42,563 nucleotides of DNA from Promethearchaeota archaeon (GCA_019057795.1 JAHLWS010000032.1:1-42563), one strand, 5' to 3'. Numbered from the stretch's first letter, positions 4,439 to 42,415 are shown. Numbers and translations: made by a program. The notes: generated from the sequence alone by a model not told the origin.

Positions 4439-4642
4439 TATTTTTCGCTCTCTTTTGTTAAATAAATTATTTTTTACTATAAACTTTCTTTTCTTTTATT
4501 TAAGAATTATTCATAGTGTAAATTTATAACATCAATTAAATCATTATCCTATAAATTAAATTATCACTGAATTTTGTATCCATCCTTGATTTTTTCTTTA
4601 AATATGAAAAGAGTAAATTGAATTTAAAAATTAGTTAAGGCG

Positions 4643-4966
4643 TTAAAAATTAAAAGAATAAAAGAAATAGGCGCTTGCCCTAGTTGTGAGTGCTCTCTAA
4701 TCGTTTTTAAGACGAACAATTACAAACGGTTCGTTAAGTGCGAGGTATGTGGACTCTCGTACGCGCTACCTAAAAGAGGTAAAATAAGCAATTCGGCTCT
4801 GGAATGCCCAAAAAGCAAGTTCCCGCTACTTATAATCGAAAAACCGGACCAAAAATGTTATTTCTGGTCGGACCAACCGTGTTTTACCTGCATCGATTAC
4901 GACAGATGTCCCGTCGTTAAGGAATTAATCTCGGAGTTCAAAGAATTGGAGGTGTACGGCTATTAA
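4643..4966 (+). CDS. Stand-alone Zn-ribbon protein resembling the C-terminal C4 fingers of type IA topoisomerase; absent from the ORF track; start codon uncertain
   Basis: KIKRIKEIGACPSCECSLIVFKTNNYKRFVKCEVCGLSYALPKRGKI…CPKS…CFTC…YGY*. No ATG/GTG/TTG between the upstream stop (4625-4627) and the Cys motifs. Confidence 0.75.
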   Translation, partial: LKIKRIKEIGACPSCECSLIVFKTNNYKRFVKCEVCGLSYALPKRGKISNSALECPKSKFPLLIIEKPDQKCYFWSDQPCFTCIDYDRCPVVKELISEFKELEVYGY

Positions 4967-6008
4967 ATCGCGCAAGAAAGCGATCATCGTTGCTATATCG
5001 TTAATCTTGGGGTTAATTGTTGGAATATTGGTTACTAATTCTCGAATAAACGGCAATATGAACTTAAAAGGCGAAACCATTTCAAATTCAGGGAACCAAC
5101 CGAAAGCGAGCTCCGAGGAATTACTGTTGGACAAAGTATTTACGTTCATCGCTCCGGACGATTCGAAACGGTTCGACGACTTATACTTATACGAGAGTAT
5201 AAACTACTACGTGATAGTAGAAATTGTAACGCCCCATAATTGCGAGATTAATGTAACCGTTATTGATCCCGACTCAGATGTTTATCAAATATTCGAGACC
5301 GAAGTCAACGTCTCGCAAGACGATCAGTGGTTCGAAATACCTTTTGGGACAGCTATTTCGGGGAATTACACTTTTATATTCTCGGTTATCTCCGAATTAA
5401 ATTTAAACTTATACGTGAAAATATTTTTCGATATGGAAGACAAGTGCTTGTACGATGTTATGTCGCCAGAATTCATCGCCAATCTGAAGCTGTACCAAGT
5501 CAATAAGTTTTACAATAATACGGAAGTAGAACACAATGTTATGTTAAAAACTGATGTGTCTTACAAGTTCTTCATCGAAAGAGTATCGGCTATTGGCGGC
5601 GAACAGAATAGTCGAGAAGTCGGAGCGTATTACTATCTTACCGATCCTGATAGCGTTGAATTTACGATATACGCTAACCAGACCATGAAAAGCGTTGGAG
5701 AGGTTTTGCATTTTAATTTCGGGACTGCTGTTGGCGGAGTTTATACGATTAAGATTAAAATTAGGTGCAAGGTTGATGTGGTAAATGTAGCTTACGCTAT
5801 AGCAAAAGACTATTCGATAAATACCGTTAAAAACGGAACTGAGCCAGACCCCGAACCAGACCCTGAACCGATCAACGGAACTATTCAAGGTTATTTTTAC
5901 GTGCCGATCGAATGGACTCTCGGGTTTATCGCCAGCGCAAGACTCGTAGTTGGAGCTTTAATCGTTATAGGAAGCGTTCGCAGGAAAAAGAGCTCTGTAT
6001 CCTTATGA
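4962..6008 (+). CDS. Cell-surface protein (signal peptide, two beta-rich domains, EPDP linker, C-terminal TM)
   Basis: ORF 5007..6008 extends in frame to ATT 4962, 7 nt after GGAGGTG, giving MKSRKKAIIVAISLILGLIVG. Confidence 0.85.
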   Translation: MKSRKKAIIVAISLILGLIVGILVTNSRINGNMNLKGETISNSGNQPKASSEELLLDKVFTFIAPDDSKRFDDLYLYESINYYVIVEIVTPHNCEINVTVIDPDSDVYQIFETEVNVSQDDQWFEIPFGTAISGNYTFIFSVISELNLNLYVKIFFDMEDKCLYDVMSPEFIANLKLYQVNKFYNNTEVEHNVMLKTDVSYKFFIERVSAIGGEQNSREVGAYYYLTDPDSVEFTIYANQTMKSVGEVLHFNFGTAVGGVYTIKIKIRCKVDVVNVAYAIAKDYSINTVKNGTEPDPEPDPEPINGTIQGYFYVPIEWTLGFIASARLVVGALIVIGSVRRKKSSVSL

Positions 6009-7047: not shown

Positions 7048-8314
7048 TTAAGCGCTCAACAGGGCTTTCGCGACGGTTTGCCATTCAACAACTTTCTTAG
7101 ACGATACTCCGCTAATTTTAGAAGCAACAATCTCGGGGTCTGAATTTATTAAGTCTTCGACCGAATTTATTCCGCTTTTCACTAAGTTTCTCGCGGTACC
7201 ATCTCCGATTCCTTTAACATCTATCAGCGAGAGATCTCCATTGATATTACCGGAACCTTCGCTCTCTTCGGCGTTACTTTCTTCTTCGTACAATGTTTCG
7301 ACTTCGAAATCTAAGCCTTGAGCTTCGGGAACTTCTCCCTTTTCTGTGTCGGCAATTCCTACACTCGTTATGTAAAACTCTGCTTCTTCAGGTGGCAAGT
7401 CAGGCGCATCCACTATTATTGCTCTGCGTTTCAGCGAACTGTTCGACGAGAATCCCTTTGTTTTAAACATAACTCGGAAGTGGCAGCCATGGGCTACGAT
7501 TTAGAAGTGATTGATGAAATATCTTGTCACTATTTCCGCCTATAGCGTCGTTTCCTGAGAACATTCCCATCATTTTAGTTGAAACTTGATTGGTTAAAAG
7601 AATGGCGCAATTGTAAGTCTCCGAGATTCGAGAAAGGGCGTGTATCATGTTATTTAAAAATCCTTGCCGGCGAGCTAACATGCCAATACCCACATATTCG
7701 GCCCGTAATAGCGCCATCAAACTGTCTACTACAATTAGACGCACATTTCGAGTTTTGCATAAAGTTTCTGCTTTTTGAATCATTTGCGATTGGTGGTCCG
7801 ATGAATAAATTCTGGCGTGATAAATCTGGGATAAAACCTTTTTAGGATCGAGGCCAAACCTTCTAGCGATGCGTTTGATTTTTTCTTTAGCAAAAGTGTT
7901 TTCGGTGTCGATGTAAGCTACTGCCGAACCGAGTCCTCCCTTACTCTTAGGAAGTTGAATGGTCACTGCTATCGTGTGAGCTAAATTGGTTTTACCGGAC
8001 TTAAAGGGGCCGTATACTTCGGTGAGTTTGCCGGTTTGGAATCCGCCGCCTAAAATTCGGTTCAGCTCGGAAGAGCCAGTGGTAATGTACTCGGTGTTCT
8101 CGTCGATCTCCTCGGCAGTTATGAACTCGGTCATACCTAACGCGGTTCGCGCGTTCCAAATCAGTTTTTTGGCGGTTTTATCTCCTAGACCATCGATCTC
8201 CGATATGATGTTATGTGGGGACATTGCTAAAGCTTCCGCCGTGCTAATACCGCTCTCTTGCAAGAGCTTTATCTGCCGAGCGTTGATCCCTTTTACTTGG
8301 TCTAAATCTGACGT
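7048..8314 (-). CDS. radA: RadA/Rad51-family recombinase paralogue; two exons (8314-7532, 7500-7048), ~411 aa, with an extra C-terminal HhH domain
   Basis: N-terminal HhH, TTGSSELNRILGGG, Walker A GPFKSGKT, YIDTENTF, Walker B LIVVDS, TNQV. Joining the exons gives IGGNIVAHGCHFRV…VDAPDLPPEEAEFYITSVGI. Proposed start is ACG 8314, 8 nt after GGAGTTGAT. Confidence 0.92.
7501..7531 (-). other. Candidate 31-nt bulge-helix-bulge mRNA intron in radA
   Basis: mRNA GGC-GGAA-AU^A-GUGA-(16 nt)-UCAC-UUCU-AA^A-UCGUAGC. Cutting after the second nucleotide of each 3-nt bulge removes exactly the insertion that breaks the frame. Confidence 0.85.
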
Positions 8315-8489
8315 TTTTTTGTATCAACTCCATATTGTAATTTGAATTAAACCAGTATACAATCGATTCTATATAAAGAAAAAAAATTTTTCCACCATAT
8401 TATGTTTATAGACATCTTTTTATATCACCTTAGAGTCTTAATATATAAATAATTATAAACAAAATTTTAAAAAACGGATGTCATGAATA

Positions 8490-9471: not shown

Positions 9472-9849
9472 TCACAGTTCTTGCTCAGAAAAAGCTGATA
9501 ATTCCTTTAAAAACTCTTTTGGGGTAATGCCGTGAGTTAACACTTTATGCCACATTCTAATGTTTTGCGAAGCAAAATTAACCTTTCCTTTATCTAAATT
9601 TTTGGCAAATTCAAGGATAGTATCCTCGATGGAGAATTTGGACCTATCACGTGCCCCAAAGAATTCCCCAAACGCAAAAAACATGTTTATAATCATCTCG
9701 ATGTCCTCGTCTGAGAAGCGTTGCCTACACAGGTTACAAATAATGCCGAATTTTAAGCTGGATTGATAAACCTTATGGCGATCTTTTATGTCGGCTCGAC
9801 AGATCGAGCATTTTATTTCGTTTGTGATCGTGATATTTGGCGTATTCAT
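9472..9849 (-). CDS. Zn-finger protein (CSIC…CNLC)
   Basis: Two CxxC pairs; backbone promoter at 9873-9887. Confidence 0.8.
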   Translation of the reverse strand: MNTPNITITNEIKCSICRADIKDRHKVYQSSLKFGIICNLCRQRFSDEDIEMIINMFFAFGEFFGARDRSKFSIEDTILEFAKNLDKGKVNFASQNIRMWHKVLTHGITPKEFLKELSAFSEQEL

Positions 9850-9942
9850 CGTAAATTATATTCTTCACCAATGTATTTAAAGGAAAAGGAAAATTGGCGC
9901 GTAAAAATTTTGTCTTTATATAATCGGAAACGCTAACCCTTA

Positions 9943-10653
9943 TTACAAATTTACGATTCCAGATTCTCCAATTTCGTAGACAAACTTCGTAGAGGTACCT
10001 TTCGAACTAACCTCCATCTGCTTTAAACCCGAACCCATGGCTTTCGATAGGTTGATGTTTATCGAGTCAATTCTATCGTATAACTTGCTAAAAAAAGGTT
10101 TTGTCTTGCCTGAGGTTGGATCGAAAGATACTTCGTGGATCAAGATTAGAATTATTTTCTCTCTTAGGCAACGCATTATTAAGGGAAACAACTGAACGCT
10201 GAAAAACTCGTCCTTGATAGCACCCCGCTTTTTAAAATCCGAATTAGAAGCGATGAAAAAGCGCAAATAATGGGAAATATTATCGATAACGATGATTTTA
10301 ATATTAATTGGAAAAATAGCCGCCTTTATTTTTCTAAAGTAAGCCGATTGGCCTTGGTAGTTAGAAAAAGGTTTTAATCCAGGGGCAACAAAAATGTTTT
10401 TCAGAATGTAATCGACTTTATCAGGATAACTTTTAAAAAGCGATCTTAACCTTTTTTTAGGAAATTGTTCGGAAGCTTGTATCCAAACGCACTGGTTTCG
10501 GTAAGGTTTTTCGAGCGTCATAAGGGTGCTAACAAATTGAAGAGCCAAGGTGGTTTTACCCGTACCTGACTTTCCTGCGATCGATATAAGCCCGTTTTTC
10601 TTAGCTAAATCGAAAACGTGAGAAATAATCGCCGATCTTTCGAGCTCGATCAT
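9943..10653 (-). CDS. radB: RadB-like RecA-family ATPase
   Basis: GKSGTGKT, WIQASEQF..KRL, Walker B IIVIDNIS; no N-terminal HhH domain; SD GGTGAT upstream. Confidence 0.75.
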   Translation of the reverse strand: MIELERSAIISHVFDLAKKNGLISIAGKSGTGKTTLALQFVSTLMTLEKPYRNQCVWIQASEQFPKKRLRSLFKSYPDKVDYILKNIFVAPGLKPFSNYQGQSAYFRKIKAAIFPINIKIIVIDNISHYLRFFIASNSDFKKRGAIKDEFFSVQLFPLIMRCLREKIILILIHEVSFDPTSGKTKPFFSKLYDRIDSININLSKAMGSGLKQMEVSSKGTSTKFVYEIGESGIVNL

Positions 10654-10674: not shown

Positions 10675-11019
10675 TTAATCGCTATCCAGTAAGTCTAAAA
10701 TTTCTCTCTGAATTTTATCTATCTCTCCTCGACGCTTCTGGCTCTCCTCGGATATTTCCCTCGAAGCGCTCGAGCCTTGAGGACTGCTCGAGAGTAGTTG
10801 TTGGAGCATAATTAGTGCCATTAAGTCGTCGAGGCTTCTATTTTGCGAAATTTGGTTTCCGCTCATAAAAACCCCTAAGAGACCATTTCCGCTCTTTCTC
10901 GCTTTGTAGAACAAATAGAAAAACAATCCTACACCGATAATAATCAAGGTGTATACAGGTTCTTTTTGGTAAAACATCAACATTGCGATTACGACCGCCA
11001 CTAAACAAAAACCTTTCAT
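10675..11019 (-). CDS. Small 2-TM protein with C-terminal coiled coil
   Basis: Hydrophobic N-terminal half; abuts the protease gene upstream and lies 21 nt before radB. Confidence 0.8.
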   Translation of the reverse strand: MKGFCLVAVVIAMLMFYQKEPVYTLIIIGVGLFFYLFYKARKSGNGLLGVFMSGNQISQNRSLDDLMALIMLQQLLSSSPQGSSASREISEESQKRRGEIDKIQREILDLLDSD

Positions 11020-11781
11020 TTACCATTGCGCCTCTTTTTCTTTTAATTTTCTTGGAGCGAACATTTTAAACCTTCTCCTTCGAGTCAATAACTTTATGCT
11101 TGGAAATTTAGACCTTCTTAAAGCATTGAAACAACTGCCGATAATCCAAAAGGTAATTTTCAAAATGAAATAGACCAATATTACGAAAAGGAAGTATTCA
11201 ATGTAGTATAGGACTTCGAACGGTAAGTAGATAAAATAGAGGTCTACGAAAAGCCATACTATGAGCCCTGACGCGACGACTAAAACTATTTGGAAAACAG
11301 AATATTTAGGGTCTCTTTTAAAAGTCTTACCAATTAGTTTCATGTCTTGCCCCGAAGGTTCAGAACCGATAAAAAGCGATACGCAGAAAACGATGGCAAC
11401 TATATTTACCCAAGCCTCAGTTTCTACATTGAAAATCACATCTAAGCAAAAAAGAAAAAGGAAAGTCGACACAAACAATGGGGCTACGCTGCCAACAAAG
11501 GTTTGTAGAAAGGAATTTCGCTCGAACTCTGGTAAGCCGACCGAACCGTGAGGGGCGACCCTCATTTTGTCTTCGCTACGGTACTTAACCTTTATTCTGC
11601 CGGTTTTGACTCCAAACAAATTATTGAAAGCATAATGAGCCACCTCGTGGACGAGAACTCCAAGGAAGGCTAAAACGTGCAGAAACGCTTTGAGACCCGG
11701 AGTGTGAGTGCGTCTATACCAATATTTAACTGCGATGGAAACTAATAGCATAAAGAACAGCCAAAAGAATAGATCCAACAT
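11020..11781 (-). CDS. Membrane-embedded HExxH metalloprotease (M50-like)
   Basis: GVLVHEVAH, downstream PSGQD, multiple TM segments. ATG 11781 is preferred over TTG 11796 from promoter spacing. Confidence 0.8.
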   Translation of the reverse strand: MLDLFFWLFFMLLVSIAVKYWYRRTHTPGLKAFLHVLAFLGVLVHEVAHYAFNNLFGVKTGRIKVKYRSEDKMRVAPHGSVGLPEFERNSFLQTFVGSVAPLFVSTFLFLFCLDVIFNVETEAWVNIVAIVFCVSLFIGSEPSGQDMKLIGKTFKRDPKYSVFQIVLVVASGLIVWLFVDLYFIYLPFEVLYYIEYFLFVILVYFILKITFWIIGSCFNALRRSKFPSIKLLTRRRRFKMFAPRKLKEKEAQW

Positions 11782-11873
11782 AAAATCAGAGTACAACGAG
11801 TACTTATAAAGAAAAAATTAGATTGATAGGAATTGTAAATAACTATCAAACAAAAAACTTCAATAAATCAAGA

Positions 11874-12125
11874 CTAATCGCTTTCTTTGAAGGCGCGAAT
11901 AAACGCTAACTTTTCTTTGACCGTTAAAATGTTCGAGGGATCGTCGATAGTTAACAAGTCTTCCTCGTCAAACCGTTCTCCGCATTCCGTGCATTCGAGT
12001 TCGGCTCCAGAGTCCCACGCGAACCTAATCATTTTCTTGGACTTACATCGCGGGCAACCAAATTTTTCGAATCGAAAGTCTCTGTGATTTTCCATATGTC
12101 CTAACTTGTTTTTACGATTCGGCAT
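11874..12125 (-). CDS. Small Zn-ribbon protein
   Basis: CPRC…CTEC. Confidence 0.75.
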   Translation of the reverse strand: MPNRKNKLGHMENHRDFRFEKFGCPRCKSKKMIRFAWDSGAELECTECGERFDEEDLLTIDDPSNILTVKEKLAFIRAFKESD

Positions 12126-12791
12126 TACCTAATATTATAATATTCAATTATTTATTGTTTTTGGCTTCTATATAAAATATTCAATATGATAATATAAAGA
12201 AAAATAAAGTAAAGATTAAAGCTTTGTAGAAATTCTTCGGTTTTTTATCCTGTAATCATTCAAAAAAATGGGGTTTAAATAGGACAATTCTCACAAATTT
12301 ATGACAAATATAATAATTAACATGTAATTTCAACGGGAGACTTAAGAAAAGTCGAAGATTTAAAACCCAATTCTAATAAAATTCAATTTATGCATAGATT
12401 TTATAGGGGCTTTTATCTTATTGAGAATATTGTCATAATTCTATTTTGACATATATCCACGATTAGTTTAAATCAATTTTTCTATTGGGATTGTTTTTAT
12501 ATTCCCAGTTTAATCTGTAACTACGACGGTTGTGAAAAAATAATTTTACTAGTTGGGATTAATATTGCAAAATTGTGTTTTTCACAAAAAAATGTAAATT
12601 TTATCTTCTAAATATGAAACCCTCCACTATAGATTGATGAATTATAGAAGAAGAATTATTAGTTTCCGCATCAGATTTCACTATTTACGCTTTTATGCGT
12701 TTTCTTTTTGAACTTCTACCCTATTTTTTACCTAATTCCAAATCTTAAAATAGCATACTGGTGATCTTCATTTCTTAGTTTGAAAATAATT

Positions 12792-12806
12792 GCAGAATTT
12801 AAATAT
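12792..12806 (+). promoter_or_regulatory. Conventional purine-rich BRE/TATA promoter of tfb
   Basis: GCAGAATTTAAATA about 40 nt before the ATG; SD-like GTGAT at 12832. Confidence 0.55.
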
Positions 12807-12845
12807 TAAAAAATTCTAAAAAAAAAAGTTAGTGATTAAAAAAAA

Positions 12846-14126
12846 ATGGCAACCCACGAATTAGTAAAAATCGATTCGCTAAAAATTAACTCCGTTCAAA
12901 ACCCTTTGGAGCGTTGCGATGTTTGCGGTTCTTGCGACATTGTCGAAACTCGCGAGGGGTACACCTGCCGGGACTGTGGTATCGTTTTGGAAGTTCAGAA
13001 ATTAGAGTACCATAGACCGTACGACGCCGAGATCGTTCAGTACGCCGTCTTGGGTAAAACTCAGATGGGATACAAAAGCGAAAGGCGCGCAGCAAAAGAC
13101 TCGGTTAGGGTCGAAGGTTTAAACAGGCTAGATTCTCACCGTACGACAGAAGAAAACGTTGTAATTTCGGCAAAGATCGCGATAAAAAGCATTTTAACGA
13201 ACCTTGACTTTCCTCTGAACGACTCTGTTAGCATTTTAGAAACCTTTAAAAGAATTCGAGCTCAGCTAGGAAAAGGTACGAAGTACAGGAGCGCCGAAAT
13301 GTTGGTCCCTTGCGTGATTTATTTTTATTACAAGCACAATAATACACCCATAAGCGAAAAGGAATTGTTGGAGGTCTCGAAAATCTCTAAAAAAGATTTC
13401 AACGAGTTCAAGATTCCTATGGTGAAATTATGGCCGCAATATAAAGAAAGAGATCGCAAGGAATACATAGTCCAAAGGATTTTAGAGATTACAGAGCACT
13501 TCGATTTGGGAATGCCGTTTTATTATCAGTCTTACAAGATTTTGTCTCGGTTTTACGAAAGCGTTAAAAACACGAAGGACGACGTTATCGTGGGTCTCGT
13601 AACCTCCATTACCTTACTCTGTTCTCAATCCGAGGGAGTGAGCGTTTCAGCTCTTTGCGAGAGGTTAGGGATCAAAATGTCGACGATCCACAGGCAAGTC
13701 GAGAGGAGAGTTATAGAACGATTTAGAGTTCCAGGTTTTAGGAGCTTATTAAAATCCGCCGGCTTGTTAAAGAAAGTAATGATTAAATTAGGCGTGCTCG
13801 ACCCTGCTTTCGTCTATGTAGACGGAGATTCAGTCGATTACGAAGATTCGCTCGTTGATGGCGTTGACATCGTCCAAGTAGTCTTAGGAAATGCGACCCC
13901 GGTTTTTAACAACTTAAACGAGAGCAAAGTTTTTTACTTATTCTTAAAAGATCTTAACGGGTATCTGGTTGCGTCTATTACTCAACCAATTAATAATAAA
14001 AATAACAGAATAGTTCGCGCTAATGCTAACGAAATAAACTTAAACGGAAAAGTAGAAAACAAAGAAATCGTCAAGCTGGAACTATGGAAGTACTACAATC
14101 CGAAAGGCCCTCCATTGACGTGTTAG
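12846..14126 (+). CDS. tfb: Divergent transcription factor B (TFB/TFIIB) paralogue with C-terminal extension
   Basis: N-terminal Zn ribbon CDVC…CRDCGIVL, two cyclin-like repeats (RSAEMLVPCVIY…PISEKELLEVSKISKKDF) and HTH VSVSALCERLGIKMSTIHRQV. Confidence 0.8.
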   Translation: MATHELVKIDSLKINSVQNPLERCDVCGSCDIVETREGYTCRDCGIVLEVQKLEYHRPYDAEIVQYAVLGKTQMGYKSERRAAKDSVRVEGLNRLDSHRTTEENVVISAKIAIKSILTNLDFPLNDSVSILETFKRIRAQLGKGTKYRSAEMLVPCVIYFYYKHNNTPISEKELLEVSKISKKDFNEFKIPMVKLWPQYKERDRKEYIVQRILEITEHFDLGMPFYYQSYKILSRFYESVKNTKDDVIVGLVTSITLLCSQSEGVSVSALCERLGIKMSTIHRQVERRVIERFRVPGFRSLLKSAGLLKKVMIKLGVLDPAFVYVDGDSVDYEDSLVDGVDIVQVVLGNATPVFNNLNESKVFYLFLKDLNGYLVASITQPINNKNNRIVRANANEINLNGKVENKEIVKLELWKYYNPKGPPLTC

Positions 14127-14409: not shown

Positions 14410-14829
14410 TTAGGTTTTTAATAAATTTGTTTTTTCAATTAATTCCTCTGTAGAGAGGACGATTATTTTATTTTGCCCTTCTTTTAGCTTTTTATCATTT
14501 GACCAGACATTAGATTTAAGTGCGAATGCAAGAGCTAGATATACGGTATCTTTGGGATCAGGAGAAATTTTTTCAGCTTTATCTATAAAAGGGGTTATTT
14601 CCTTTTTTGGAACAATAGTAATCTGCTCTTTTAATAATTCTAAAAATTCGTTGAATTCTTCATTAGAACGATGAGTTTTTTTCAGAATAAGTTCTTCATA
14701 TTTAGTAAATTCCGAAAATAAGAATTCGGGGGCAAAAAGTTGCAGTTTATCACTAATCAAGATCTCTGCAGTTGAGCCCTCTTTAATTAAAGCAGCAAAA
14801 AAGATATTAGCATCAACAACTAATCTCAT
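14410..14829 (-). CDS. vapC: PIN-domain toxin
   Basis: VVDANIF…E…DPKD..YLALA…WSNDKKL. Confidence 0.9.
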   Translation of the reverse strand: MRLVVDANIFFAALIKEGSTAEILISDKLQLFAPEFLFSEFTKYEELILKKTHRSNEEFNEFLELLKEQITIVPKKEITPFIDKAEKISPDPKDTVYLALAFALKSNVWSNDKKLKEGQNKIIVLSTEELIEKTNLLKT

Positions 14830-14832
14830 CTT

Positions 14833-15057
14833 TTACTCACTCTTATAACGATCTAGTAAGAGCTCGCTTATCTCTCTTCCAAGATTTAAAGCATCTTCTG
14901 GAGATATTTCACTATCGATTCGAAAACCTTTTAAAAAATTTAATTGTGCGATCTTTTTCTTAATAGAATCTCTTGCTACTTCAGACCAATTAATTTCTGG
15001 AAAATTTTCCATCATTTCTTTTAATTCACTAGAAATTGATAAAGTTAAATTTGTCAT
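14833..15057 (-). CDS. vapB: RHH-type antitoxin
   Basis: MTNLTLSISSELKEMM..PEINWSEVAR; lies 3 nt upstream of vapC. Confidence 0.85.
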   Translation of the reverse strand: MTNLTLSISSELKEMMENFPEINWSEVARDSIKKKIAQLNFLKGFRIDSEISPEDALNLGREISELLLDRYKSE

Positions 15058-15176
15058 TGTAATCTTAATTCGTTTGTTTGATTATTATGTGATCATATGT
15101 GAATACACATATTAATAACTTTATATCAATATTAAAAATTTTAGGAAATATATTATTTTCACCACAATAGTTCTGA

Positions 15177-15455: not shown

Positions 15456-15478
15456 AAAGAAAAAAAAAGTGGTAAAGT

Positions 15479-29524: not shown

Positions 29525-29592
29525 TATAAAATGATCTTAAATTTAAAATTTAAAAAGGAAAAATTTTGATAAGATACAAAATTAGAGAAAGC

Positions 29593-33518: not shown

Positions 33519-33653
33519 TATTTATCACCAATCTAAAAAAATTCTAAAGATTATTATTATTATACTAATTAGTACGGGTTAGACCATTTTTTCATGAACT
33601 ATTGGAAAGTGTGACTTAAAATATATAAATAAAAAAATATTATTCTTGCTCGC

Positions 33654-33893: not shown

Positions 33894-33909
33894 TTTTTTC
33901 TTTAAATAA
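33894..33909 (+). promoter_or_regulatory. Backbone promoter motif TTTTTTCTTTAAATAA (representative copy)
   Basis: Related copies at 811-826(-), 1066-1082(-), 4590-4605(+), 8369-8386(-), 9873-9887(-), 11802-11817(-), 12191-12204(-), 17987-18004(+), 20868-20884(+), 23934-23949(+), 29548-29563(-), 36067-36082(+). Confidence 0.7.
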
Positions 33910-33938: not shown

Positions 33939-36011
33939 ATGACAAATGTATATCATAAATCGCCGGAAATAATGGTTGATGTTCTCGAAGAACGAGCGAA
34001 TAAATTGCCCCAAACAACCGATGACCTCACTAAAATTAAAGGCATTGGCTCTGGTACCGCCGAAAAGCTAAACACTAGAAAAATTTACACCTATCGACAG
34101 CTTGCCGAACTAACGCCCGAGAAACTATCTGAAGCTCCTGGAATAGGTATAGCTACGGCTAGAAAATTTATAGAGGAAGCGAAAAATCTTCTTGGTGAAT
34201 TTCAAGAACAAAATTCTGTCAATAAACAGAATCAGGTAATAGAAAAAACTACTGAAATATTAAAGAAAGAAAAGGAAACCGAAGTTGATAATATTGAAAC
34301 CTTCGAAGTTGCTGAAGTAATTGTTGAGGAGGAACTCCCACAGGAAAAGTTCAAAAGAGAAGAAAAACCCATCGAAACCGTTCAAAAAAAGTGGTTTAGC
34401 GATAAATTTAATCGTTCTCGACTTACAGCTTCTTATCCCCCCATCTTAAAAAGATCGTCAGAAGAAAACAAAGTTGAAGAGAATTTCGAGTCTAAGGAAG
34501 TTACTTTACAGAAGAATAATACGCCCTACAAACAATTACTTGCGAGGTCAGAAGTCAAAGTTGAGAACGCAATTAGTGAAATTGAAGAAATTGGAATCGA
34601 ACCTATAAGCGAATCCGAATCCGAAGTGGAAGAAGCAGAAGATGAATACCAAGAAGAAGTTCCGGTAAGGTTTGAAAACAATCTAATCTTAGAACCTTTT
34701 GAGAGCGAAGTACCCTTACCAAAAGAAGAGGTTCCTCGCGAAGAATACGTTGTTGCTCCAACTTATACCGAGTTTCCTGAAGTTACTAAAATTCCAGAGA
34801 TTCCAGTAGATACAATTATTCCAGAAATTTCAGAAACTCCAACGAGTTCAAGGACACTAAATCGCCAAGAAGATCTTACAAGTGAGATCGCCGAATCGTT
34901 AAAAAACTCAGGATATTACCCAATTCCAAGCGCAATGAAAGCTCTAAAACCGTTTTTCCAAGGTGTCGATTACTTAGGCTGCAAGCTCGTAAGCGTTAAC
35001 GACAACTCGAAGCTTATTTTTCTCGTACCAATCAAATTTTGCGACTTAGAAGGAAGGATATTAATACACGAAGAGAAAATTGACTACAAGACTTACTCGA
35101 AGGCTCAAGAATCCGAGTCAGTACATACAGCGCGCCAACACGCAATCGACCTTTTAAAAGCTAAAAACGCTGTGTTTGAAGACGTCGTTAACGGCGATAA
35201 CTTTCTAAGCTTCATTCAAAAATACTTGCAGGTAAGATTTACGGCGGAAAAAAGCGCAAGAAACAAGAAACTATATTTTGTCTCAGGACAAACTCAATAC
35301 AAAATTTTAATCGAACCCATCTTGCTAACCAAAATACCCGCGAAATGTATGGAAAAATCGATTCTGTTCCCATACCAGAGAAAAACAAACTTACACGTTA
35401 TCGATAGGTCTAACATCGCCACTCTACTACGATTTTTGGAGAAAAAGTATCAATTAATCGAATCTCACTTTAAAAGGACTAATTCGATCGAGATATACCA
35501 AAACGCAGACACTAAGTTTCGTTCGAGTCTGAGGGTAGTTTCGCTTCCGTTCATCGGGTACGCCGTAGTACTGCTTGTTATCTATTTTTCGCGACTGTAT
35601 TTTCTTTTGAGACTTTTCAATAGCATCGGACTCGCTGTCATGGGGATTTACTTTTTCACGATATCGTACTTATACTTTAAGTTTTATAAAACTAAAAAAG
35701 AGCTGACGACCGAATTTGAAACGCCATATTATTTACAGAACGCACAGTTTAACGAAACCGATTTGTTATGCATAAAGGAAGAGTTCATAGGCGAACAGAT
35801 GGCTCAATTTGGCTACGAGTGTTTCGGAAAAGACAACAATTTTAAGGTATTAGAGCAGGTCGAAAAGGATACAATTAAGAAAAGCGTAGTAGCAAAGCAA
35901 CGGGAGCAAGTCACACCACAATTGTACGAATTGGACTCTGAATCAGATTCTAGCTCAACGACAGAGAAAGTTAAGAACGAGGTAAAATACAGTTCGTTTT
36001 TTGACGATTAA
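33939..36011 (+). CDS. Membrane-anchored helix-hairpin-helix DNA-binding protein
   Basis: DDLTKIKGIGSGTAEKL…PGIGIATARKFI, long acidic linker, globular domain, two TM helices. Confidence 0.8.
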   Translation: MTNVYHKSPEIMVDVLEERANKLPQTTDDLTKIKGIGSGTAEKLNTRKIYTYRQLAELTPEKLSEAPGIGIATARKFIEEAKNLLGEFQEQNSVNKQNQVIEKTTEILKKEKETEVDNIETFEVAEVIVEEELPQEKFKREEKPIETVQKKWFSDKFNRSRLTASYPPILKRSSEENKVEENFESKEVTLQKNNTPYKQLLARSEVKVENAISEIEEIGIEPISESESEVEEAEDEYQEEVPVRFENNLILEPFESEVPLPKEEVPREEYVVAPTYTEFPEVTKIPEIPVDTIIPEISETPTSSRTLNRQEDLTSEIAESLKNSGYYPIPSAMKALKPFFQGVDYLGCKLVSVNDNSKLIFLVPIKFCDLEGRILIHEEKIDYKTYSKAQESESVHTARQHAIDLLKAKNAVFEDVVNGDNFLSFIQKYLQVRFTAEKSARNKKLYFVSGQTQYKILIEPILLTKIPAKCMEKSILFPYQRKTNLHVIDRSNIATLLRFLEKKYQLIESHFKRTNSIEIYQNADTKFRSSLRVVSLPFIGYAVVLLVIYFSRLYFLLRLFNSIGLAVMGIYFFTISYLYFKFYKTKKELTTEFETPYYLQNAQFNETDLLCIKEEFIGEQMAQFGYECFGKDNNFKVLEQVEKDTIKKSVVAKQREQVTPQLYELDSESDSSSTTEKVKNEVKYSSFFDD

Positions 36012-36103
36012 TTGACATCAATTTTTATGCAAAATTATAAAATTTTCTTTTCCATTAAATGTTTAATTTTTTCTTTTTATACTCTTGTAGAGTTTAGATT
36101 GGT

Positions 36104-36859
36104 ATGACGGTAAATTTAAAATCAGGATACAAAATTATTTTTATTATTGGTTTGTTGCTCGGGTTTGCCTCGGTCTTTTTGGATTGGTACTACTTTCAAG
36201 GAGTAAACGATTCTGGCGAGGTCGTGGTGAATTGGATTTATAACGCGCTGTTCGATTGGAGTACCGAGCTTTCTCAAGGCGCTATTATTAACGAGTTTTA
36301 CGAGCCTAAAAATGCCTCTCTACCTGTTGCCATTATAATCGCTTTCTTAATAGTTATTTTTTTGTCCGCGTATTTAGTATTATTTCTTGACGTGGAACGC
36401 AAAGATAATTTACCTAGATTAAAACAATTCGGGTTCGTCAACTTATCCTTGGTGACCTTAATTGGGTTCTTCGTTTTAATCTACCCGTTGTATTTTTTGC
36501 TCCCTAACGGTTTGTACTACCCTTTCTTAGCCTATAACGATTACGAGTTAGAAGTTACTTTTTACTATTCGATCGGTCCTGGATATTTTCTCCAATTAAT
36601 CTCGTTTGTTTGTACCTTTCCTTACGCGATGTTCAATCATTCAATAATTAACACTTTCGAAAAAGAGCAATCCAGTGCGGAAAATGCGATAAAACGGCAT
36701 GTTGAAAGCGTTCGAGAAGACTTAGACTTGGACAAGTTGATATCCCAAGAAGAATTTAAGCTTGAATCTGCGAAAGAGTCCCTAAAAGAGTCTCCAGCGT
36801 CTAAAAGCGAAACACAAAAGATTTTCGACGATTTTCTAACAGTTCGGGGGCGAAGGTAA
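36104..36859 (+). CDS. 4-TM membrane protein
   Basis: Four hydrophobic segments and a charged tail; first gene of a tightly spaced four-gene operon. Confidence 0.85.
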   Translation: MTVNLKSGYKIIFIIGLLLGFASVFLDWYYFQGVNDSGEVVVNWIYNALFDWSTELSQGAIINEFYEPKNASLPVAIIIAFLIVIFLSAYLVLFLDVERKDNLPRLKQFGFVNLSLVTLIGFFVLIYPLYFLLPNGLYYPFLAYNDYELEVTFYYSIGPGYFLQLISFVCTFPYAMFNHSIINTFEKEQSSAENAIKRHVESVREDLDLDKLISQEEFKLESAKESLKESPASKSETQKIFDDFLTVRGRR

Positions 36860-36863
36860 GAAA

Positions 36864-37718
36864 GTGAAGGAACAGTTGTTAGATCTAAAGCTCAAGCGGT
36901 TGATCCAGCTCTGTAAAGAAACTAATAACCATAAAAAGATAGCGGTAGTAAGTTTTGTGCTTACGAGCAACGCAGTCGACGAGATCGGAATCAAGTTAGG
37001 AATGCGTTCGAGAGAAAAAAACGCGGGAGAAAAAATATTCGAATACATGGAGCTCGTAAATAAGGTTTTTGGAGTAAATTTCAGCGTTAACGTGTTTAGG
37101 CCGGAATTAATCGACGTATTAAAGAGAGTAGAACTTTTGTTCTTAAAAAAGGAAGGAGAACTTCGCTTTGAATATACTAAGGAAACTTTCGAGGTTTATT
37201 ATGAGCTTCGTAAGTTGGACGTTCCCAACTTACACGACAGCATCAATTCGGAAGTTATCGATAAAAATCGCACGATTTCTATGTTCTCTTTCTTATCGGG
37301 TGGTCGAATTGGAAAAGGTAAGGAAGAGGGCATGTTTAACACAATTTTACTTCAAAAATTTAAAGAAGAAGAAAAAGCGCTTCAATACCAACTAAATAAA
37401 CAATTCGACAAGAACACATTTGAGAAAATTCTACAACTCAAAACCATTAGGAAAGGTATCGAGCAAAAAAAGGGCGGAAAAATCGTTATTTCGGGCTCGC
37501 TAAAAGATAATATTTCTTACAAGCAATCGAAGGAACAGGTTGGGCAATTTTTAGTTATCGGGATTATAATTTTGTTTGCCATGGTTGGTAGCATATCTTT
37601 AATTGAGGCCTTAATGTACGGATTCTTGTCGGTGGCTATTAGCTACAACTTGCTCGTCTGTTTTGGGGTCATTATTGTGCTTTATTTCGTAAATAAAACT
37701 TATTTTGGTAATAGGTGA
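36864..37718 (+). CDS. Protein with C-terminal TM hairpin
   Basis: Soluble N-terminal domain and two C-terminal TM helices. Confidence 0.82.
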   Translation: MKEQLLDLKLKRLIQLCKETNNHKKIAVVSFVLTSNAVDEIGIKLGMRSREKNAGEKIFEYMELVNKVFGVNFSVNVFRPELIDVLKRVELLFLKKEGELRFEYTKETFEVYYELRKLDVPNLHDSINSEVIDKNRTISMFSFLSGGRIGKGKEEGMFNTILLQKFKEEEKALQYQLNKQFDKNTFEKILQLKTIRKGIEQKKGGKIVISGSLKDNISYKQSKEQVGQFLVIGIIILFAMVGSISLIEALMYGFLSVAISYNLLVCFGVIIVLYFVNKTYFGNR

Positions 37719-37727: not shown

Positions 37728-40700
37728 ATGGTAAAAACATACAGAGATTTTTTAAACGATTCAAACAGTAATAATAAGTTTAGACCAAATACCAACGATA
37801 GCGAAAAAGAAGAAAATAGCAGGTATTTGGATGTGTGGAAGGTAAATCCTTCTTACAAGGATGTTAACACGAGGGAGATTGTTCTCAAAGCAACTTCTTT
37901 AGTCGTAATTGGGCTGTTATTTTTTACTTCTGTGCTATACACGACTTATAACCTCGTGCTTTCCATTGGAATTGCAGTGATCGTATCAATTAGTTTTGTT
38001 ATGGCGTTCCATAAAAAATTTTTTAGCTTGCGCCACTTATTTGATTTTCGCTCTTTTAAGCCGCTTGGAGACTTCATTTTTTGGCAGACAAAATACGACA
38101 AATTCGTGTTATTTTTTACGAATTACAAAGAGCTCAACACTACAGGGGTTAGGACTTTTAGGATAAAAGTTCTTCCTGAAAACGTACACGCTAACTTAAA
38201 CCGATTCTATAAAGGATTGCATGCGCTCAAAGTGCCGTTTTCGTATCAAATAATTCAAAAACCGCTTCAAACAAGTAATAACGGCAATGGTTCTGAATCT
38301 TCGACTTTTGAGACGAGTATTTACTTCAGCACTTTTTACAACATTAAAGGAAAAATTACTGAATCGAAATTGGTAAAAATGATCGAGGCACTCCGAGAAT
38401 ACGCGGTCTCCTTAAAATCGGCGTTTGCTTCCAACTTCCACCACTTTAAGGTCGTTCAGCTTTCTGGAGAAGAGTTAGTAAACGCCTATAGAATCGCGGT
38501 TTTGAAGCAGGACGTAGAAATCGAAGAAGATTCGAAAAAAATTAATTGCAAAACGGTAGAACCTAAAATAAAACCTATTATATTGAAAGCAAGCTACATT
38601 TTAGCGATTGTTATATCTCTAGATCGGTTGCTTTTAGTATTTAACTTACCTATAATAATACAATTTTTAGCGACGCTTACGATTCTTATAGCAATATTAG
38701 TAATTTGGTGGCGTGAAGTGTTTTTCTTTCTAATCAAAAACAAGTTATTTAAATCGAACGACATCCAAGTTGTCGATCCTTTTTCTGACATTAAGTTTTT
38801 CAAGGTATCAGAAGCGCCCGAGACTATTTTTTACCAAGTCGAAGGAAAAATAATCGGGGGAATAAAGATTAATAACATGTATTTCACTCATCCGCCGCCC
38901 CATTGCTCTGCGAGTAAGTTTTACGAAGCTCTCATCCACGAAAGAATGCCTTTTACAACCACGATTCAACAAACTCCTTTAACCTTCCATCAGTTCGATA
39001 AAGAAGGTTTTAAATTCTTAAAAGACATAGAGCAGCAAAAATTGCTAACAAGAACGGAATCGGTTATAGACGGAAATAAATGGCTAAGCTCTCGATCAGG
39101 CATCTGGAGTGCAATTATAACTTATTCCACTTCGGTAATCTTAAAAGCTCCTGCTCTTGACTACGAGATTATTAACGAGATAGAGCAAAAGTTAAAAAAT
39201 CAAAGTTTGGTGTTGCGAAAAAGCTTCAAGCAATTTTTTGTTACTTACGAGTTAAAACAACTTAGAAAAAACGAGTTAGAATCGGGGCTCCTGTTTGAAA
39301 CGCTCAAAAACAAGTTTTTTAGGAGGAACGGTACCCACTTGAATTATTTGATGTTTCAAGGAAAAACTCTTATGTTTATCACCGAAATTTCCGACCAATT
39401 CAAAAAAGGAGTCGAGACGAGGTTAGCCGCAGAATTTAACACACCCTTACAATTAACTAATTTTATTACTATTGGCCATACCATAAACACTGAGTTCTTA
39501 GAAAACGAAGTTCCGATGGGGTTTACTCTCGAGCAATTACGAAATTTATTAGTAGTCAACGGGACAAATTCGAGCAGAGAAGCGTTGTGTCAAAAAATCG
39601 TTGCGGAACTCGTGAAAGTGGGATATTCATCTGTAATTTTCGATTTCACCGGTAATTGGTCTAAATTAATAAGCGTTTTTGAGGGCACGATATATGAAGA
39701 TAAGTTTTTATACCTCAAAGTGGGCAAAACATTTCTAGTTAATCCTCTTTTTTCAGAACTTCCCTACGATAAAGACAACATGGGCTATTTGGATTACATG
39801 TTTGACGCTTTTGCGTTGTGCTTTAAAAAAGACGAGAGGACGATCGATGCCTTCAAAAATACTATCGCGCGTAATCCCAATATAGATGTTTCTACTTTAA
39901 CTTTAGACCTAACTACTATGAGAGAGTGGGAAAAGTCACCTATTACGGACTCGTTACTATCGTTTTTCAGCGAGTTCACCCCCCAAGACATAAGCTTCAT
40001 GCAACGCCAACAATCGGATAAGCAAGAGATTATTCCCTCTTACGAGCTTATAACGCACGACAAAACGGTAATTATCGATTTTTCGGAAGTTAAAAACTAC
40101 GATAAGCAGTGTTACTTTACGTTCGTCATTCTTTCTAAGTTTATCCATTATCTAAAGACTGAAAAGGCTTATTACCCTAAATTCTTAATTGTACCGCATT
40201 TAGATGTAATTTTTGACGGGTTTTTTATAGATAAAAAAGTTAATTACGGTATAATCGATAAGTTTCTCGAACCTTTCGTACAAAAAGGATTTGGGACGGT
40301 CTGTTCGGCTTCTCAAATAAGGTATATCCACCCTAACGCGTTCAATTACTACGAGAATTTAGTTACTTTTAAAGCGACCGATAAAAGAGATAGCGCCATG
40401 CTTAGCTCTCTAATGAATTTAGAGTCTCTTCATGGGATAGGGTACTATAGTCGCAGTAGAAACGAAGGCTATCAATTGAGGTACATCGCGAGCATGAAAA
40501 AAAACGAGGCCGTGGTTAAACGAGAAGATATTTACCAACCTTTTCCTGTCGAATTCGACTTGAAAGAAGTAGAAAACGCAAAACCTCTGTCATGGGGAGA
40601 AATATTAGCCTACATGGGAAAGCAAGGGTACGACTTGGAAAACGCCGAGAAACGAATAATCCAAAGGGCAGAAAAGACTTTATTCCAGAAAGATTTTGGA

Positions 40701-41501
40701 GATTATAGCGTGTTAATCGAAGGTATAATAAAGTTTCTGAACAACTTGAAAAAGCTGGACCAAATAGGCAACCTATACGAGCAAAAAGTTAAAAAAGAGT
40801 TAACAGAATGGCTACACCCATACATTTTAAAAATAACGAAAGATAAAAAAAGAGAAAAAGAGATCAAAGACAAAACTTTCGAAATTTTGGTGAAACATCG
40901 ATACTTAGTTGAGAGCCATCCCCGAAGAGCAAGCGGTTCGGAATCACTACAAACTTCTTTCGCGGTCGGACCGCACTACGATGAAGCCTTAAAAGACTAT
41001 TACGAAACTCAGAGAGAGGCGTCAATTCTCTACGAGCCGTTAGACATGGAATCCGATAACTCCGACAATTCTGAGAGTTCTTTACAAGCCGAAAAAATTA
41101 ACGCTAAAAACTTAAAGAATGCATTTGCTAAGCATTTCGCTCCAATTTTCTATTACGAATATTTTAAAATGTATCAATCTATTAAAAACGAAAATTTCGA
41201 AAAATCGCTTAAAATCAGCAAAAACTTACTTAGAAAGTTCCTTCACGCCACATATAACTCTTATTATAGCGTTAATTACGCGATTCTGAGCGCAGACATC
41301 AACAGATTTATCATGGCAATAATGCATGTAGAGGATTTTCCGTTTTCTAATAAGGAATTAAGGGAATTTCTTATTATTTGCGAAAAATTATCTTTAGATA
41401 AGGAAGGTGTAGAAAAACGCAGCAAAGCTACTTTCGAGAAGTATTCTAAAATTTTCGATAAGTTTAAACTATACATCGAAGGAGATCTGGGGGCGATTTA
41501 A
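37728..41501 (+). CDS. Large membrane-bound VirB4/HerA-like protein with degenerate Walker motifs
   Basis: Two TM hairpins; LLVVNGTNSSRE (Walker A position), VIFDFTGNW, TVIIDFSEV, FLIVPHLD (Walker B position), KGFGTVCSASQ…NLVTFK. Confidence 0.75.
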   Translation: MVKTYRDFLNDSNSNNKFRPNTNDSEKEENSRYLDVWKVNPSYKDVNTREIVLKATSLVVIGLLFFTSVLYTTYNLVLSIGIAVIVSISFVMAFHKKFFSLRHLFDFRSFKPLGDFIFWQTKYDKFVLFFTNYKELNTTGVRTFRIKVLPENVHANLNRFYKGLHALKVPFSYQIIQKPLQTSNNGNGSESSTFETSIYFSTFYNIKGKITESKLVKMIEALREYAVSLKSAFASNFHHFKVVQLSGEELVNAYRIAVLKQDVEIEEDSKKINCKTVEPKIKPIILKASYILAIVISLDRLLLVFNLPIIIQFLATLTILIAILVIWWREVFFFLIKNKLFKSNDIQVVDPFSDIKFFKVSEAPETIFYQVEGKIIGGIKINNMYFTHPPPHCSASKFYEALIHERMPFTTTIQQTPLTFHQFDKEGFKFLKDIEQQKLLTRTESVIDGNKWLSSRSGIWSAIITYSTSVILKAPALDYEIINEIEQKLKNQSLVLRKSFKQFFVTYELKQLRKNELESGLLFETLKNKFFRRNGTHLNYLMFQGKTLMFITEISDQFKKGVETRLAAEFNTPLQLTNFITIGHTINTEFLENEVPMGFTLEQLRNLLVVNGTNSSREALCQKIVAELVKVGYSSVIFDFTGNWSKLISVFEGTIYEDKFLYLKVGKTFLVNPLFSELPYDKDNMGYLDYMFDAFALCFKKDERTIDAFKNTIARNPNIDVSTLTLDLTTMREWEKSPITDSLLSFFSEFTPQDISFMQRQQSDKQEIIPSYELITHDKTVIIDFSEVKNYDKQCYFTFVILSKFIHYLKTEKAYYPKFLIVPHLDVIFDGFFIDKKVNYGIIDKFLEPFVQKGFGTVCSASQIRYIHPNAFNYYENLVTFKATDKRDSAMLSSLMNLESLHGIGYYSRSRNEGYQLRYIASMKKNEAVVKREDIYQPFPVEFDLKEVENAKPLSWGEILAYMGKQGYDLENAEKRIIQRAEKTLFQKDFGDYSVLIEGIIKFLNNLKKLDQIGNLYEQKVKKELTEWLHPYILKITKDKKREKEIKDKTFEILVKHRYLVESHPRRASGSESLQTSFAVGPHYDEALKDYYETQREASILYEPLDMESDNSDNSESSLQAEKINAKNLKNAFAKHFAPIFYYEYFKMYQSIKNENFEKSLKISKNLLRKFLHATYNSYYSVNYAILSADINRFIMAIMHVEDFPFSNKELREFLIICEKLSLDKEGVEKRSKATFEKYSKIFDKFKLYIEGDLGAI

Positions 41502-42415
41502 TGGTAAAAGCGCAAGAAACTGGAACTTTCGACGGAGTGATAGAAAAAATAGTGTTTGACGAGGGAGAATTAGATGAGCTTAAAATCGCCATCAGAAACT
41601 TTGGTAAAGGAGCAATTACAACTAAACAACTAAAACAAATGCTACTCCGCTTTCGAGGTCGTATAGTTAAAGACATATCGAATTTTCTAAGTCTTTGCGT
41701 CGATCGAGCTCGAGAAAGCGGTCAAGCTCTGGTTGATAGGAATTTTACCAACTCAAATCAGTCTGATTTAGCAAACGACCAATTGTGGCAAGATATTGCG
41801 GAAAGAAACGAGTTATTAGAGGTTATAGCAAAAAGGATTAGCGCTCTTGCGTCAAATGCTAAGAAAGAAACCCCTACTGTGGACGAAAGTTTGAGTTTGG
41901 AAGATATAATAAAGAGCGAAGTAGAACGAGTTTTTTTGGCTATTAAAGTCAACGAATGGCTCGACATGTGCGGATACGACGATTATAAGTTCTACATTAA
42001 ACTATACAACAAGTTACAAGCGCTCTACCGCCAGAAGTTTGGAGACGATGGTGAAAAACCCAAAAATGCCAAAAATGCCAAAGTAGAACAAGAGATTATG
42101 GCGGAAAGAATAGCGAAATTAAACTTTCCAGAGGAGGCAACCACAGAATTAATTCAATTTATAGTTATCCGAAATAACGCTACACACGACGATAGGGATT
42201 TAACTTCGTCTGATATGGAAATAGCGCATAACGCTTTCGTTCGATTACTTATTTATCTTATCGTGAGTAGTTTGAACGCTCAACTTTTAGCTGAAAACAG
42301 AAAAGATTTTTACAATTATTTAAATCAATATTTTTCGAGTAAATTAGAAAATAATTCTAAATTTCTAGAAAAAATTAAGAAGAATTTAAACTCGCTTTTT
42401 AACAACTTTAGGTAA
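41501..42415 (+). CDS. HEPN-domain protein (RxxxxH)
   Basis: IRNNATHDD (42170-42187) in a helical context; start overlaps the upstream stop (TAATG). Confidence 0.65.
   Translation: MVKAQETGTFDGVIEKIVFDEGELDELKIAIRNFGKGAITTKQLKQMLLRFRGRIVKDISNFLSLCVDRARESGQALVDRNFTNSNQSDLANDQLWQDIAERNELLEVIAKRISALASNAKKETPTVDESLSLEDIIKSEVERVFLAIKVNEWLDMCGYDDYKFYIKLYNKLQALYRQKFGDDGEKPKNAKNAKVEQEIMAERIAKLNFPEEATTELIQFIVIRNNATHDDRDLTSSDMEIAHNAFVRLLIYLIVSSLNAQLLAENRKDFYNYLNQYFSSKLENNSKFLEKIKKNLNSLFNNFR

Follow-up and report, generated by a model that had tools for sequence, protein, structure and literature searches.

To our knowledge, it is unknown how Asgard archaea exchange and recombine DNA. A contig of a Promethearchaeota archaeon (GCA_019057795.1, JAHLWS010000032.1) raises this question, and a preliminary description had read most of it either as an inducible competence- or mating-like programme or as the backbone of a large integrated element. 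The window analysed here is the entire contig (C32; 42,563 nucleotides, 42.6 kb), which belongs to a Loki-type Asgard assembly of 4.95 Mb in 87 contigs with a completeness of 100 and a contamination of 7.5. We found that it carries a vertically inherited, dispensable and probably co-regulated cluster of one Lokiarchaeial family, with about 20 genes, that joins a recombination module to a membrane module. The recombination module is comprised of a third RadA paralog (RadA3), a Rad57/XRCC3-like ATPase (g09), a Hef-type helicase without nuclease and, apart from a copy described below, the genome's only Hel308-type helicase. The membrane module contains a DNA-binding anchor protein with a helix-hairpin-helix (HhH) domain (g28), two small transmembrane (TM) proteins (g29 and g30) and a TM-anchored, catalytically dead protein of the HerA/VirB4 fold (g31, 1257 amino acids (aa)). 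This finding rests on gene content, on conservation and co-loss, on a shared promoter element and on a protein fold. Genes were mapped by Pfam and NCBIfam scans of all long frames, plus one short frame without a canonical start. The gene content listed in the preliminary description was present (Table 1), although the labels RadB, Hef and topoisomerase-like needed correction.

With RadA3 and the 1257-aa protein as anchors, we fetched the flanking sequence in related genomes and mapped all window proteins onto it by tblastn. The cluster begins with the genes for a Zn-ribbon protein, g03, RadA3, g08, the Rad51-paralog-like ATPase, a two-TM protein, an HExxH protein, a TFB-like factor and an α/α-toroid protein, and continues with g20, the Hef-like helicase, a DUF1922 protein, g24 and Hel308; the HhH anchor, g29, g30, the 1257-aa protein and g32 follow in divergent orientation. 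Six loci of genus g1 have this order, as do three further genera of this Lokiarchaeial family (g10, g12 and g13), in which protein identities fall as low as 25-40%. Genus g14 has a rearranged order of genes that are still clustered, and a comparison of flanks showed gene order and neighbours to be alike in two genera. The linkage is conserved across genera. Only a few kb separate RadA3 from Hel308-like and Hef-like helicases in two other families, where the membrane operon is absent. The cluster of the relatives is without a Ras gene, a PIN/NosD/PIN block (14.4-20.7 kb) and a β-lactamase/YhaM block (27.4-30.9 kb) that are found in the window, and these are local insertions, the PIN/NosD block because the TFB-like and toroid genes adjoin in relatives. 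Two NosD surface proteins had been counted among the components; both are present in the window, but the clusters of relatives lack them.

Members of the 1257-aa family were detected in 48 of the 61 sampled genomes of the Lokiarchaeial family, and hits outside it were only weak. Five near-complete genomes were without the 1257-aa protein. Three of them, from three genera, also had no RadA3 ortholog and no Hel308 match, and in the other two the cluster meets a contig end. Four genomes of genus g1, three of them at most 87% complete, had the 1257-aa protein and no RadA3 ortholog that we could find. The block from g24 to g32, including Hel308, is repeated at C68:26438-42755 with 57-94% identity (Hel308 94%, 1257-aa protein 76%, g32 57%) and with a NosD-like gene between the anchor gene and Hel308. 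This block is either a paralogous duplication or a co-binned second strain, the latter being possible because of the 7.5% contamination. In a tree of RadA proteins, RadA3 formed a separate clade whose branching matched family and genus across four families. Taken with the phyletic pattern, a tree that follows taxonomy argues that the cluster is old, inherited vertically, dispensable and not a mobile element. Separate full-length copies of two of the genes exist elsewhere in the genome, namely RadA on C36 (316 bits) and C69 (310 bits, as against 201 bits for the window gene in the same genome search) and a complete Hef with nuclease on C31 (858 bits), but no better Hel308 does. Most of the window's recombination genes are accordingly not the housekeeping copies, which speaks for a dedicated module.

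The genes also share a promoter type, as first suggested for this locus. With the exception of the TFB-like gene, all transcription units have the element TTTTTTC(T/C)TT(T/A)(A/T)A ahead of their first gene, and it is kept in other genera. Its core, TTTC[CT]TT[TA][TA]A, occurred in 55 of 2488 promoter regions (2.2%), a crude genome-wide set in which the commonest promoter words were plain TTTAAATA types. Among orthologous promoters the element was found for g08 (7/8), the Zn-ribbon gene (6/7), g20 (10/14), g11 (6/10), the toroid gene (4/7), radA3 (5/11) and g29 (6/16), and it was kept in these loci while the surrounding intergenic sequence diverged. It occurred 0 times before internal operon genes and in 0/9 promoters of the TFB-like gene; the chance rate is 0.036 per 170 nucleotides (nt). 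Elsewhere in the genome, the element precedes the operon copy on C68, HExxH paralogs, RadA-1, a FEN1/XPG nuclease, an OB-fold protein and a C5 methylase. Such genes are functionally mixed, and we therefore claim no thematic regulon beyond the cluster. The shared, distinctive promoter type argues for co-regulation of the cluster, to which the element is not private.

A candidate regulator is encoded within the cluster. A profile of g13 matched the first cyclin repeat of TFIIB chains (3.6e-5) and, weakly, their Zn ribbon; PF00382 had no match in g13. The genome contains at least 10 canonical TFB genes, none of them in the window. The g13 protein ends in KGPPxxC (14100-14126), a tail that is conserved in the genus and of which other genera retain KGPP. 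The neighbouring g11 protein has invariant residues H50, E51, H54 and P147-S148-x-x-D151 (HExxH and PSGQD). It had been described as an intramembrane protease; a polytopic HExxH membrane protein is indeed present, but its resemblance to site-2 proteases is weak (aq_1964 metalloprotease, E 0.08). The TFB-like and HExxH genes recur as an adjacent pair, at C53:120633-122253 and C84:2401-4059 as well as at 11020-14126 in the window. The copies on C53 and C84, which hardly differ around the promoter, may represent a single locus that was assembled twice. Such a pair recalls a transcription factor under the control of a protease. We infer that the TFB-like factor reads the promoter element and, because the pair recurs on C53 and C84, that the HExxH protein may control this factor. 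An alternative factor, TFB3, is linked to ced and ups induction. TFB3 is reported as a player in the Sulfolobus ultraviolet response (PMC6101591).

The largest protein of the membrane operon, g31, is predicted to have two to three TM segments at its N-terminus by a simple hydropathy scan. An AlphaFold2 (AF2) model of residues 345-1100, built from a 19-sequence alignment, had a predicted local distance difference test (pLDDT) score of 76.5. Foldseek matched it to HerA, TrwK/VirB4, TrwB and DndH at 1e-11 to 1e-7, with single matches to HerA (4d2i, 1e-11), TrwK (8rtd, 1e-10) and VirB4 (4ag5, TM-score 0.65). The model therefore points to a HerA/VirB4-type core within the FtsK-HerA fold, as anticipated in the preliminary description. 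The Walker motifs are absent: NGTNSSRE (39558-39581) replaces Walker A and IVPHLD (40188-40205) replaces Walker B, so that g31 has neither of the FtsK-HerA P-loop ATPase motifs GxxGxGK[ST] and hhhhDE. Profiles of g31 against solved chains and Pfam gave no family match. An exhaustive profile search of 1.84 billion representatives returned only 237 relatives, the named hits being all hypothetical proteins of Promethearchaeota; some distant relatives have a weak winged-helix match at the C-terminus.

The membrane-tethered HhH protein, g28 (33939-36011), was as described. It has an N-terminal HhH domain of the RadA N-terminal type, a long acidic disordered linker, an α/β domain and two TM helices. 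For its C-terminal domain (pLDDT 83), Foldseek matches had E-values of at least 0.16 and VIA matched only the TM helical hairpin. The linker contains a motif conserved across genera, WFxxK(F/Y)N(Y/R)SRLxASYPP (34380-34460(+)), that is probably a docking site for some partner. RadA docking through an FxxA-type polymerisation motif in g28 (TFEVAEV) was rejected, this motif being confined to the genus. The several small membrane proteins were confirmed as well: g29 has only three to four TM helices, as against the 6-7 of a VirB6/CedA-like channel, and gene g10 encodes a two-TM hairpin protein. Profiles of g30 and g20 against solved structures yielded nothing usable, nor did Atlas look-ups of g30 and g28. 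In the product of the last gene of the operon, g32, conservation is limited to the first 120 residues, and its C-terminal RNxxxH domain is found only in some orthologs.

In the recombination module, the RadA gene (7048-8314(-)) was confirmed. Exon 1 alone scored 274 bits against NF003301 (cut-off 259), and the protein has an N-terminal HhH domain and a RecA core with Walker A and B, together with an extra C-terminal HhH domain. The reading frame is interrupted after AIGGN and taken up at IVAH in a different frame. Removing 31 nt (7501-7531) restores it, and intron-less RadA3 orthologs of 412-419 aa have an uninterrupted frame. Precisely this stretch was missing from 8 orthologs, and 4 gene copies from 3 genomes had it. 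In DNA contigs of four runs, we saw only the source assembly, which carries the insert, and mixed relatives, some with these 31 nt and some lacking them. The insert conforms to a relaxed bulge-helix-bulge (BHB) with a central helix GGAA/UUCU, bulges AUA and AAA, an inner helix GUGA/UCAC and a weak outer helix. In the two 4-bp helices, located by hand with pairing counted afterwards, 32/32 cells paired with one compensatory and one G-U change, as against 37-53% in slid controls. A shuffle control was weak (101/500) because only four sequences were available, and unconstrained minimum free energy folding gave the intron region no advantage over shuffled sequences (z -0.43). Among the four intron-bearing copies, codon differences in exon 2 numbered 138 synonymous and 28 non-synonymous when read in the spliced frame, and about 10 and 150, respectively, when read in other frames. 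This synonymous excess indicates that exon 2 is still translated in the spliced frame. With symmetric cuts and exact absence from intron-less orthologs, the insert is a predicted BHB intron.

A BHB (tRNA-type) intron is present in the protein-coding crenarchaeal cbf5 pre-mRNA. The radA3 insert resembles it in being short, in its 4-bp central helix and two 3-nt bulges and in being exactly absent from intron-less orthologs. It differs in that its host gene is a radA paralog from an Asgard archaeon and in having a weak outer helix (relaxed HBh' type). The start codons are also unusual. An A-run frameshift at the radA3 N-terminus was considered and rejected; an alignment of 11 orthologs instead revealed a near-cognate start column behind GGAGTTGAT, with ATG in 4 orthologs and ACG, ATT or ATA in 7. 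The Hel308 start column varies likewise across orthologs, with ATT in the window, and the Zn-ribbon gene starts at ATT in the window with a near-cognate pattern as in radA3. Intron and near-cognate starts, earlier proposed as levels of control, are thus real, but we do not read them as cluster-specific controls. A recombinase gene predicted to rely on a tRNA-type intron is of interest in itself. So are recombination genes that start at ACG or ATT, since gene finders truncate or split those genes.

Other labels changed. The g09 protein, first called RadB, scored 31.6 bits on the RadB model (TIGR02237 / NF006861; cut-off 172), and its profile was closest to Rad57 (2.5e-11) and XRCC3 (8.7e-8); it is a Rad51-paralog-like ATPase instead. 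The helicase named Hef matched NF010337 at 563 bits (cut-off 610) over only positions 6-532 of 781. The helicase half is thus of Hef type, but neither the model match nor a profile of the C-terminal 180 residues against solved chains, which matched nothing, detected the ERCC4 nuclease that, with HhH2, defines Hef. The gene called Hel308 (30996-33518(-)) encodes a helicase of Hel308 type, with a best whole-protein score of 407 bits (below the family cut-off of 887; 327 bits in the genome search) and weak hits to domain 4 and the HhH-like domain 5. This gene and its 94%-identical C68 copy are the genome's only Hel308-type helicases. The C-terminal half contains an invariant CxC...CxH (C540, C542, C562, H564; 31728-31802(-)) that resembles a SWIM-type zinc finger, and we know of no such finger in canonical Hel308. 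Upstream of the gene, a short frame (33567-33593(-)) ending in ...KKW(S/T)NPY-stop is conserved in several genera, and the window keeps its last eight codons (MKKWSNPY). The Zn-ribbon protein (4646-4966), described as topoisomerase-like, had no topoisomerase family match; its identity to the counterparts in genera g1 and g10 is 69-75%, and it gave only weak S27e/Lar Zn-ribbon hits.

Table 1. Features of the cluster and of the insertions within it, in positions of the window.
Feature	Position	Strand	Remarks
Promoter element TTTTTTCTTTAAATA of the Zn-ribbon/g03 unit	4593-4602	+	65-86 nt upstream in 6/7 orthologous loci; one-base variant in the seventh
Double Zn-ribbon protein, ~105 aa	4646-4966	+	ATT start; ATG or TTG in relatives
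g03, extracellular, single C-terminal TM anchor; conserved neighbour	5007-6008	+	
radA3, third RadA paralog	7048-8314	-	ACG start 8314-8312; exon 1 7532-8314; exon 2 7048-7500
radA3 intron, 31 nt, predicted BHB type, between GGN and IVAH	7501-7531	-	
radA3 promoter element	8372-8381	-	
g08, small CxxC...CxxC protein	9472-9849	-	own promoter element 9877-9886
g09, RecA-fold ATPase, Rad51-paralog-like	9943-10653	-	Walker A intact (GKSGTGKT)
Gene g10, two-TM hairpin and cytoplasmic tail	10675-11019	-	
g11, polytopic HExxH membrane protein	11020-11796	-	promoter element 11805-11814
g12, Zn-ribbon protein, 83 aa	11874-12125	-	promoter element 12193-12202
g13, divergent TFB/TFIIB-like factor	12846-14126	+	Zn ribbon, first cyclin repeat and 100-aa C-terminal extension
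Window-specific insertion: PIN, two NosD/beta-helix surface proteins, PIN and small open reading frame	14410-20711		
g19, extracellular α/α-toroid protein, 975 aa	20938-23865	+	N-terminal signal anchor, C-terminal TM anchor
Operon: g20 (192 aa), Hef-type helicase (24566-26770), DUF1922 Zn-ribbon protein (26757-27347)	23971-27347	+	
Mostly window-specific insertion: β-lactamase-family protein, YhaM-like HD/OB protein	27414-30906	-	only g24 (29234-29524) conserved here
Hel308-type Ski2-like helicase	30996-33518	-	ATT start 33518-33516, 5 nt after GGTGAT; CxC...CxH insertion 31728-31802
g28, HhH anchor protein, two TM helices	33939-36011	+	promoter element 33897-33906
g29 (three to four TM helices) and g30 (cytoplasmic domain, two C-terminal TM helices)	36104-37718	+	internal promoter element of g29 36070-36079
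g31, 1257 aa, N-terminal TM hairpins and predicted HerA/VirB4-fold domain	37728-41501	+	
g32, coiled-coil protein, translationally coupled	41501-42415	+	C-terminal RNxxxH (HEPN-like) 42170-42187

Two further observations concern the surroundings of these genes. The PIN genes (14410-14829 and 20015-20711(-)), one with a small upstream partner, bracket the NosD genes and resemble toxin-antitoxin modules marking a local insertion. At the left end of the contig and outside the cluster, a large protein with TPR repeats is encoded (1215-3608(-)); its relatives on C61 include a SIR2-TPR fusion with the promoter element.

What might such a cluster do? Membrane-anchored members of the FtsK-HerA fold move DNA or substrates across or at membranes. 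Because g31 belongs by its predicted fold to this family, because a DNA-binding anchor and a DNA translocase have been inherited and duplicated together with it, and because Ted loci carry repair genes, we infer that the parts act jointly on DNA at the membrane. On this ground, a role in which DNA would be exchanged or taken up between cells and then recombined ranks first among those that we considered, by analogy with Ced and tentatively; the joint duplication of Hel308 and the membrane operon on C68 speaks for it. In such a scheme, the cluster-encoded TFB-like factor would switch on TTTTTTCTTTATA-type promoters, and the adjacent HExxH membrane protein may control the factor. The dead HerA/VirB4-like protein would serve as a membrane scaffold, perhaps a ring, at which the HhH anchor would hold DNA. 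The divergently transcribed Hel308-type translocase would be the motor, and RadA3 and its mediator would recombine the DNA. The boldest version is an inducible programme of cell-to-cell exchange and recombination in Lokiarchaeia, in which a membrane signal would act through a site-2-type protease and a private TFB paralog on a regulon with a variant B recognition element (BRE)/TATA box, with a dead VirB4/HerA ring, a Hel308 motor, a RadA paralog and a mediator; we regard this full chain as doubtful.

Several results weigh against DNA exchange. Walker A GK[ST] and Walker B DE were absent from 20/20 aligned g31 orthologs, which have hhhNGTxxxRE and P(H/N)hD instead, and GxxxxGK[ST] was absent from the 17 most distant relatives inspected. 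With the lysine of Walker A and the acidic pair of Walker B missing, g31 therefore cannot be the motor. No VirB6/CedA-like channel or VirB2/CedA1-like pilin was recognised in searches with g30 and g28. The HhH domain of g28 is predicted to be cytoplasmic, and the promoter element also precedes unrelated genes for a carbon monoxide dehydrogenase (CODH) subunit, NAD synthase and a histidine kinase. The HEPN-like domain of some g32 copies, and membrane genes that evolve about twice as fast as the helicases, would fit a conflict system too. Some of these points favour a membrane-tethered module for repair or chromosome handling without intercellular transfer, in which the HhH protein and the dead HerA-like scaffold would anchor broken or replicating DNA for repair by RadA3, its mediator and the helicases. 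Such a module would account for the same linkage, promoter and fold evidence, for the predicted cytoplasmic side of the HhH domain and the soluble domains and for the missing pilus or channel component, and Hel308 and Hef are fork-repair helicases. Yet three near-complete genomes do without the entire set, and the conserved, co-regulated set includes the extracellular anchored g03 and the toroid protein, which a purely internal job leaves unexplained; we consider this role possible, although rather unlikely.

It is unlikely, too, that independent modules (recombination paralogs, the TFB-like/HExxH pair and the membrane operon) are neighbours that merely share a strong promoter variant. The unrelated genes with the element would fit such an arrangement, as would RadA3, Hel308 and Hef-like genes without the membrane operon in other families and the four genus g1 genomes in which RadA3 was not found. 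However, the clustering survives rearrangement in genus g14, three markers from different modules were lost together, and Hel308 was duplicated with the membrane operon. A defence or conflict system against mobile elements, formed by the cluster or at least by the membrane operon and Hel308 with helicase sensors and a membrane or HEPN effector, seems improbable. Known defence complexes in which HerA-family proteins have effector partners are present among the fold matches, some copies of g32 carry a fused HEPN-like RNxxxH domain, the fast-diverging operon exists in several copies, and PIN modules have been inserted nearby; nevertheless, the syntenic position is fixed across genera with no island-like turnover, and a strand-exchange recombinase with a mediator is atypical for defence. 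We give almost no weight to a large integrated element, conjugative or otherwise mobile, of which the cluster would be the backbone. A VirB4/HerA-like fold with small TM proteins and the local insertions of PIN toxin genes speak for it, but Pfam and NCBIfam scans of the window frames found no tRNA, integrase, transposase or relaxase, and the cluster has no att-like boundary in the window. In addition, the RadA3 phylogeny is congruent with taxonomy in four families, gene order and neighbours are alike in two genera, and the HerA/VirB4-like ATPase is dead. DNA exchange with recombination thus stays ahead of tethered repair, unrelated modules, defence and a mobile element, in this order.

The way in which Asgard archaea exchange and recombine DNA bears on ideas about the origin of sex and about that of the Rad51/Dmc1 and Rad51-paralog machinery. 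The cluster offers a concrete, testable candidate with a defined gene set, a promoter element and a candidate regulator. It also brings to light a membrane protein family restricted to Promethearchaeota, all of whose members are annotated as hypothetical, and the absence of Walker motifs suggests that a whole branch of the HerA/VirB4 fold has abandoned ATP hydrolysis. If the inducible exchange programme were true, it would be a forerunner-like archaeal analogue of mating in the lineage closest to eukaryotes.

Among known systems, the DNA-import machineries Ced (crenarchaeal) and Ted (of Thermoproteales) come closest. Small TM proteins partner a VirB4/HerA-like ATPase in Ced, and Rad50 and HerA-like genes are found at Ted loci too (PMC9905601). 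Like Ced and Ted (CedA, CedA1, CedA2, CedB), the cluster is a chromosomal locus with a membrane-bound protein of predicted VirB4/HerA fold and small two-TM and multi-TM partners, and like Ted it includes recombination and repair genes. Unlike them, it shows no sequence similarity, its P-loop is dead family-wide, it adds the HhH anchor, the RadA paralog and the Hel308 and Hef-like helicases, and it belongs to Lokiarchaeia and not Thermoproteota. Since g31 has the fold of the Ced/Ted ATPase without Walker A and B, the cluster falls outside Ced and the type IV secretion systems, and we claim analogy, not family membership. Compared with HerA, VirB4 (TrwK) and TrwB, g31 differs in its Walker A (hhhNGTxxxRE), its Walker B (hhhhP(H/N)hD) and its N-terminal TM hairpin modules, while the order of motifs is kept: P-loop strand and helix, hhhFD..G strand, Walker B strand. 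Bacterial competence (ComEA HhH anchor, ComFA superfamily 2 (SF2) motor, DprA/RecA) differs in that homology extends only to the generic HhH and SF2 folds, the HhH domain of g28 is predicted to be cytoplasmic and the cluster has no ComEC-like channel. As a functional analogy only, the cluster resembles competence in bringing together a membrane HhH anchor, a possible motor in the form of an SF2 helicase and a dedicated recombination mediator in one regulon.

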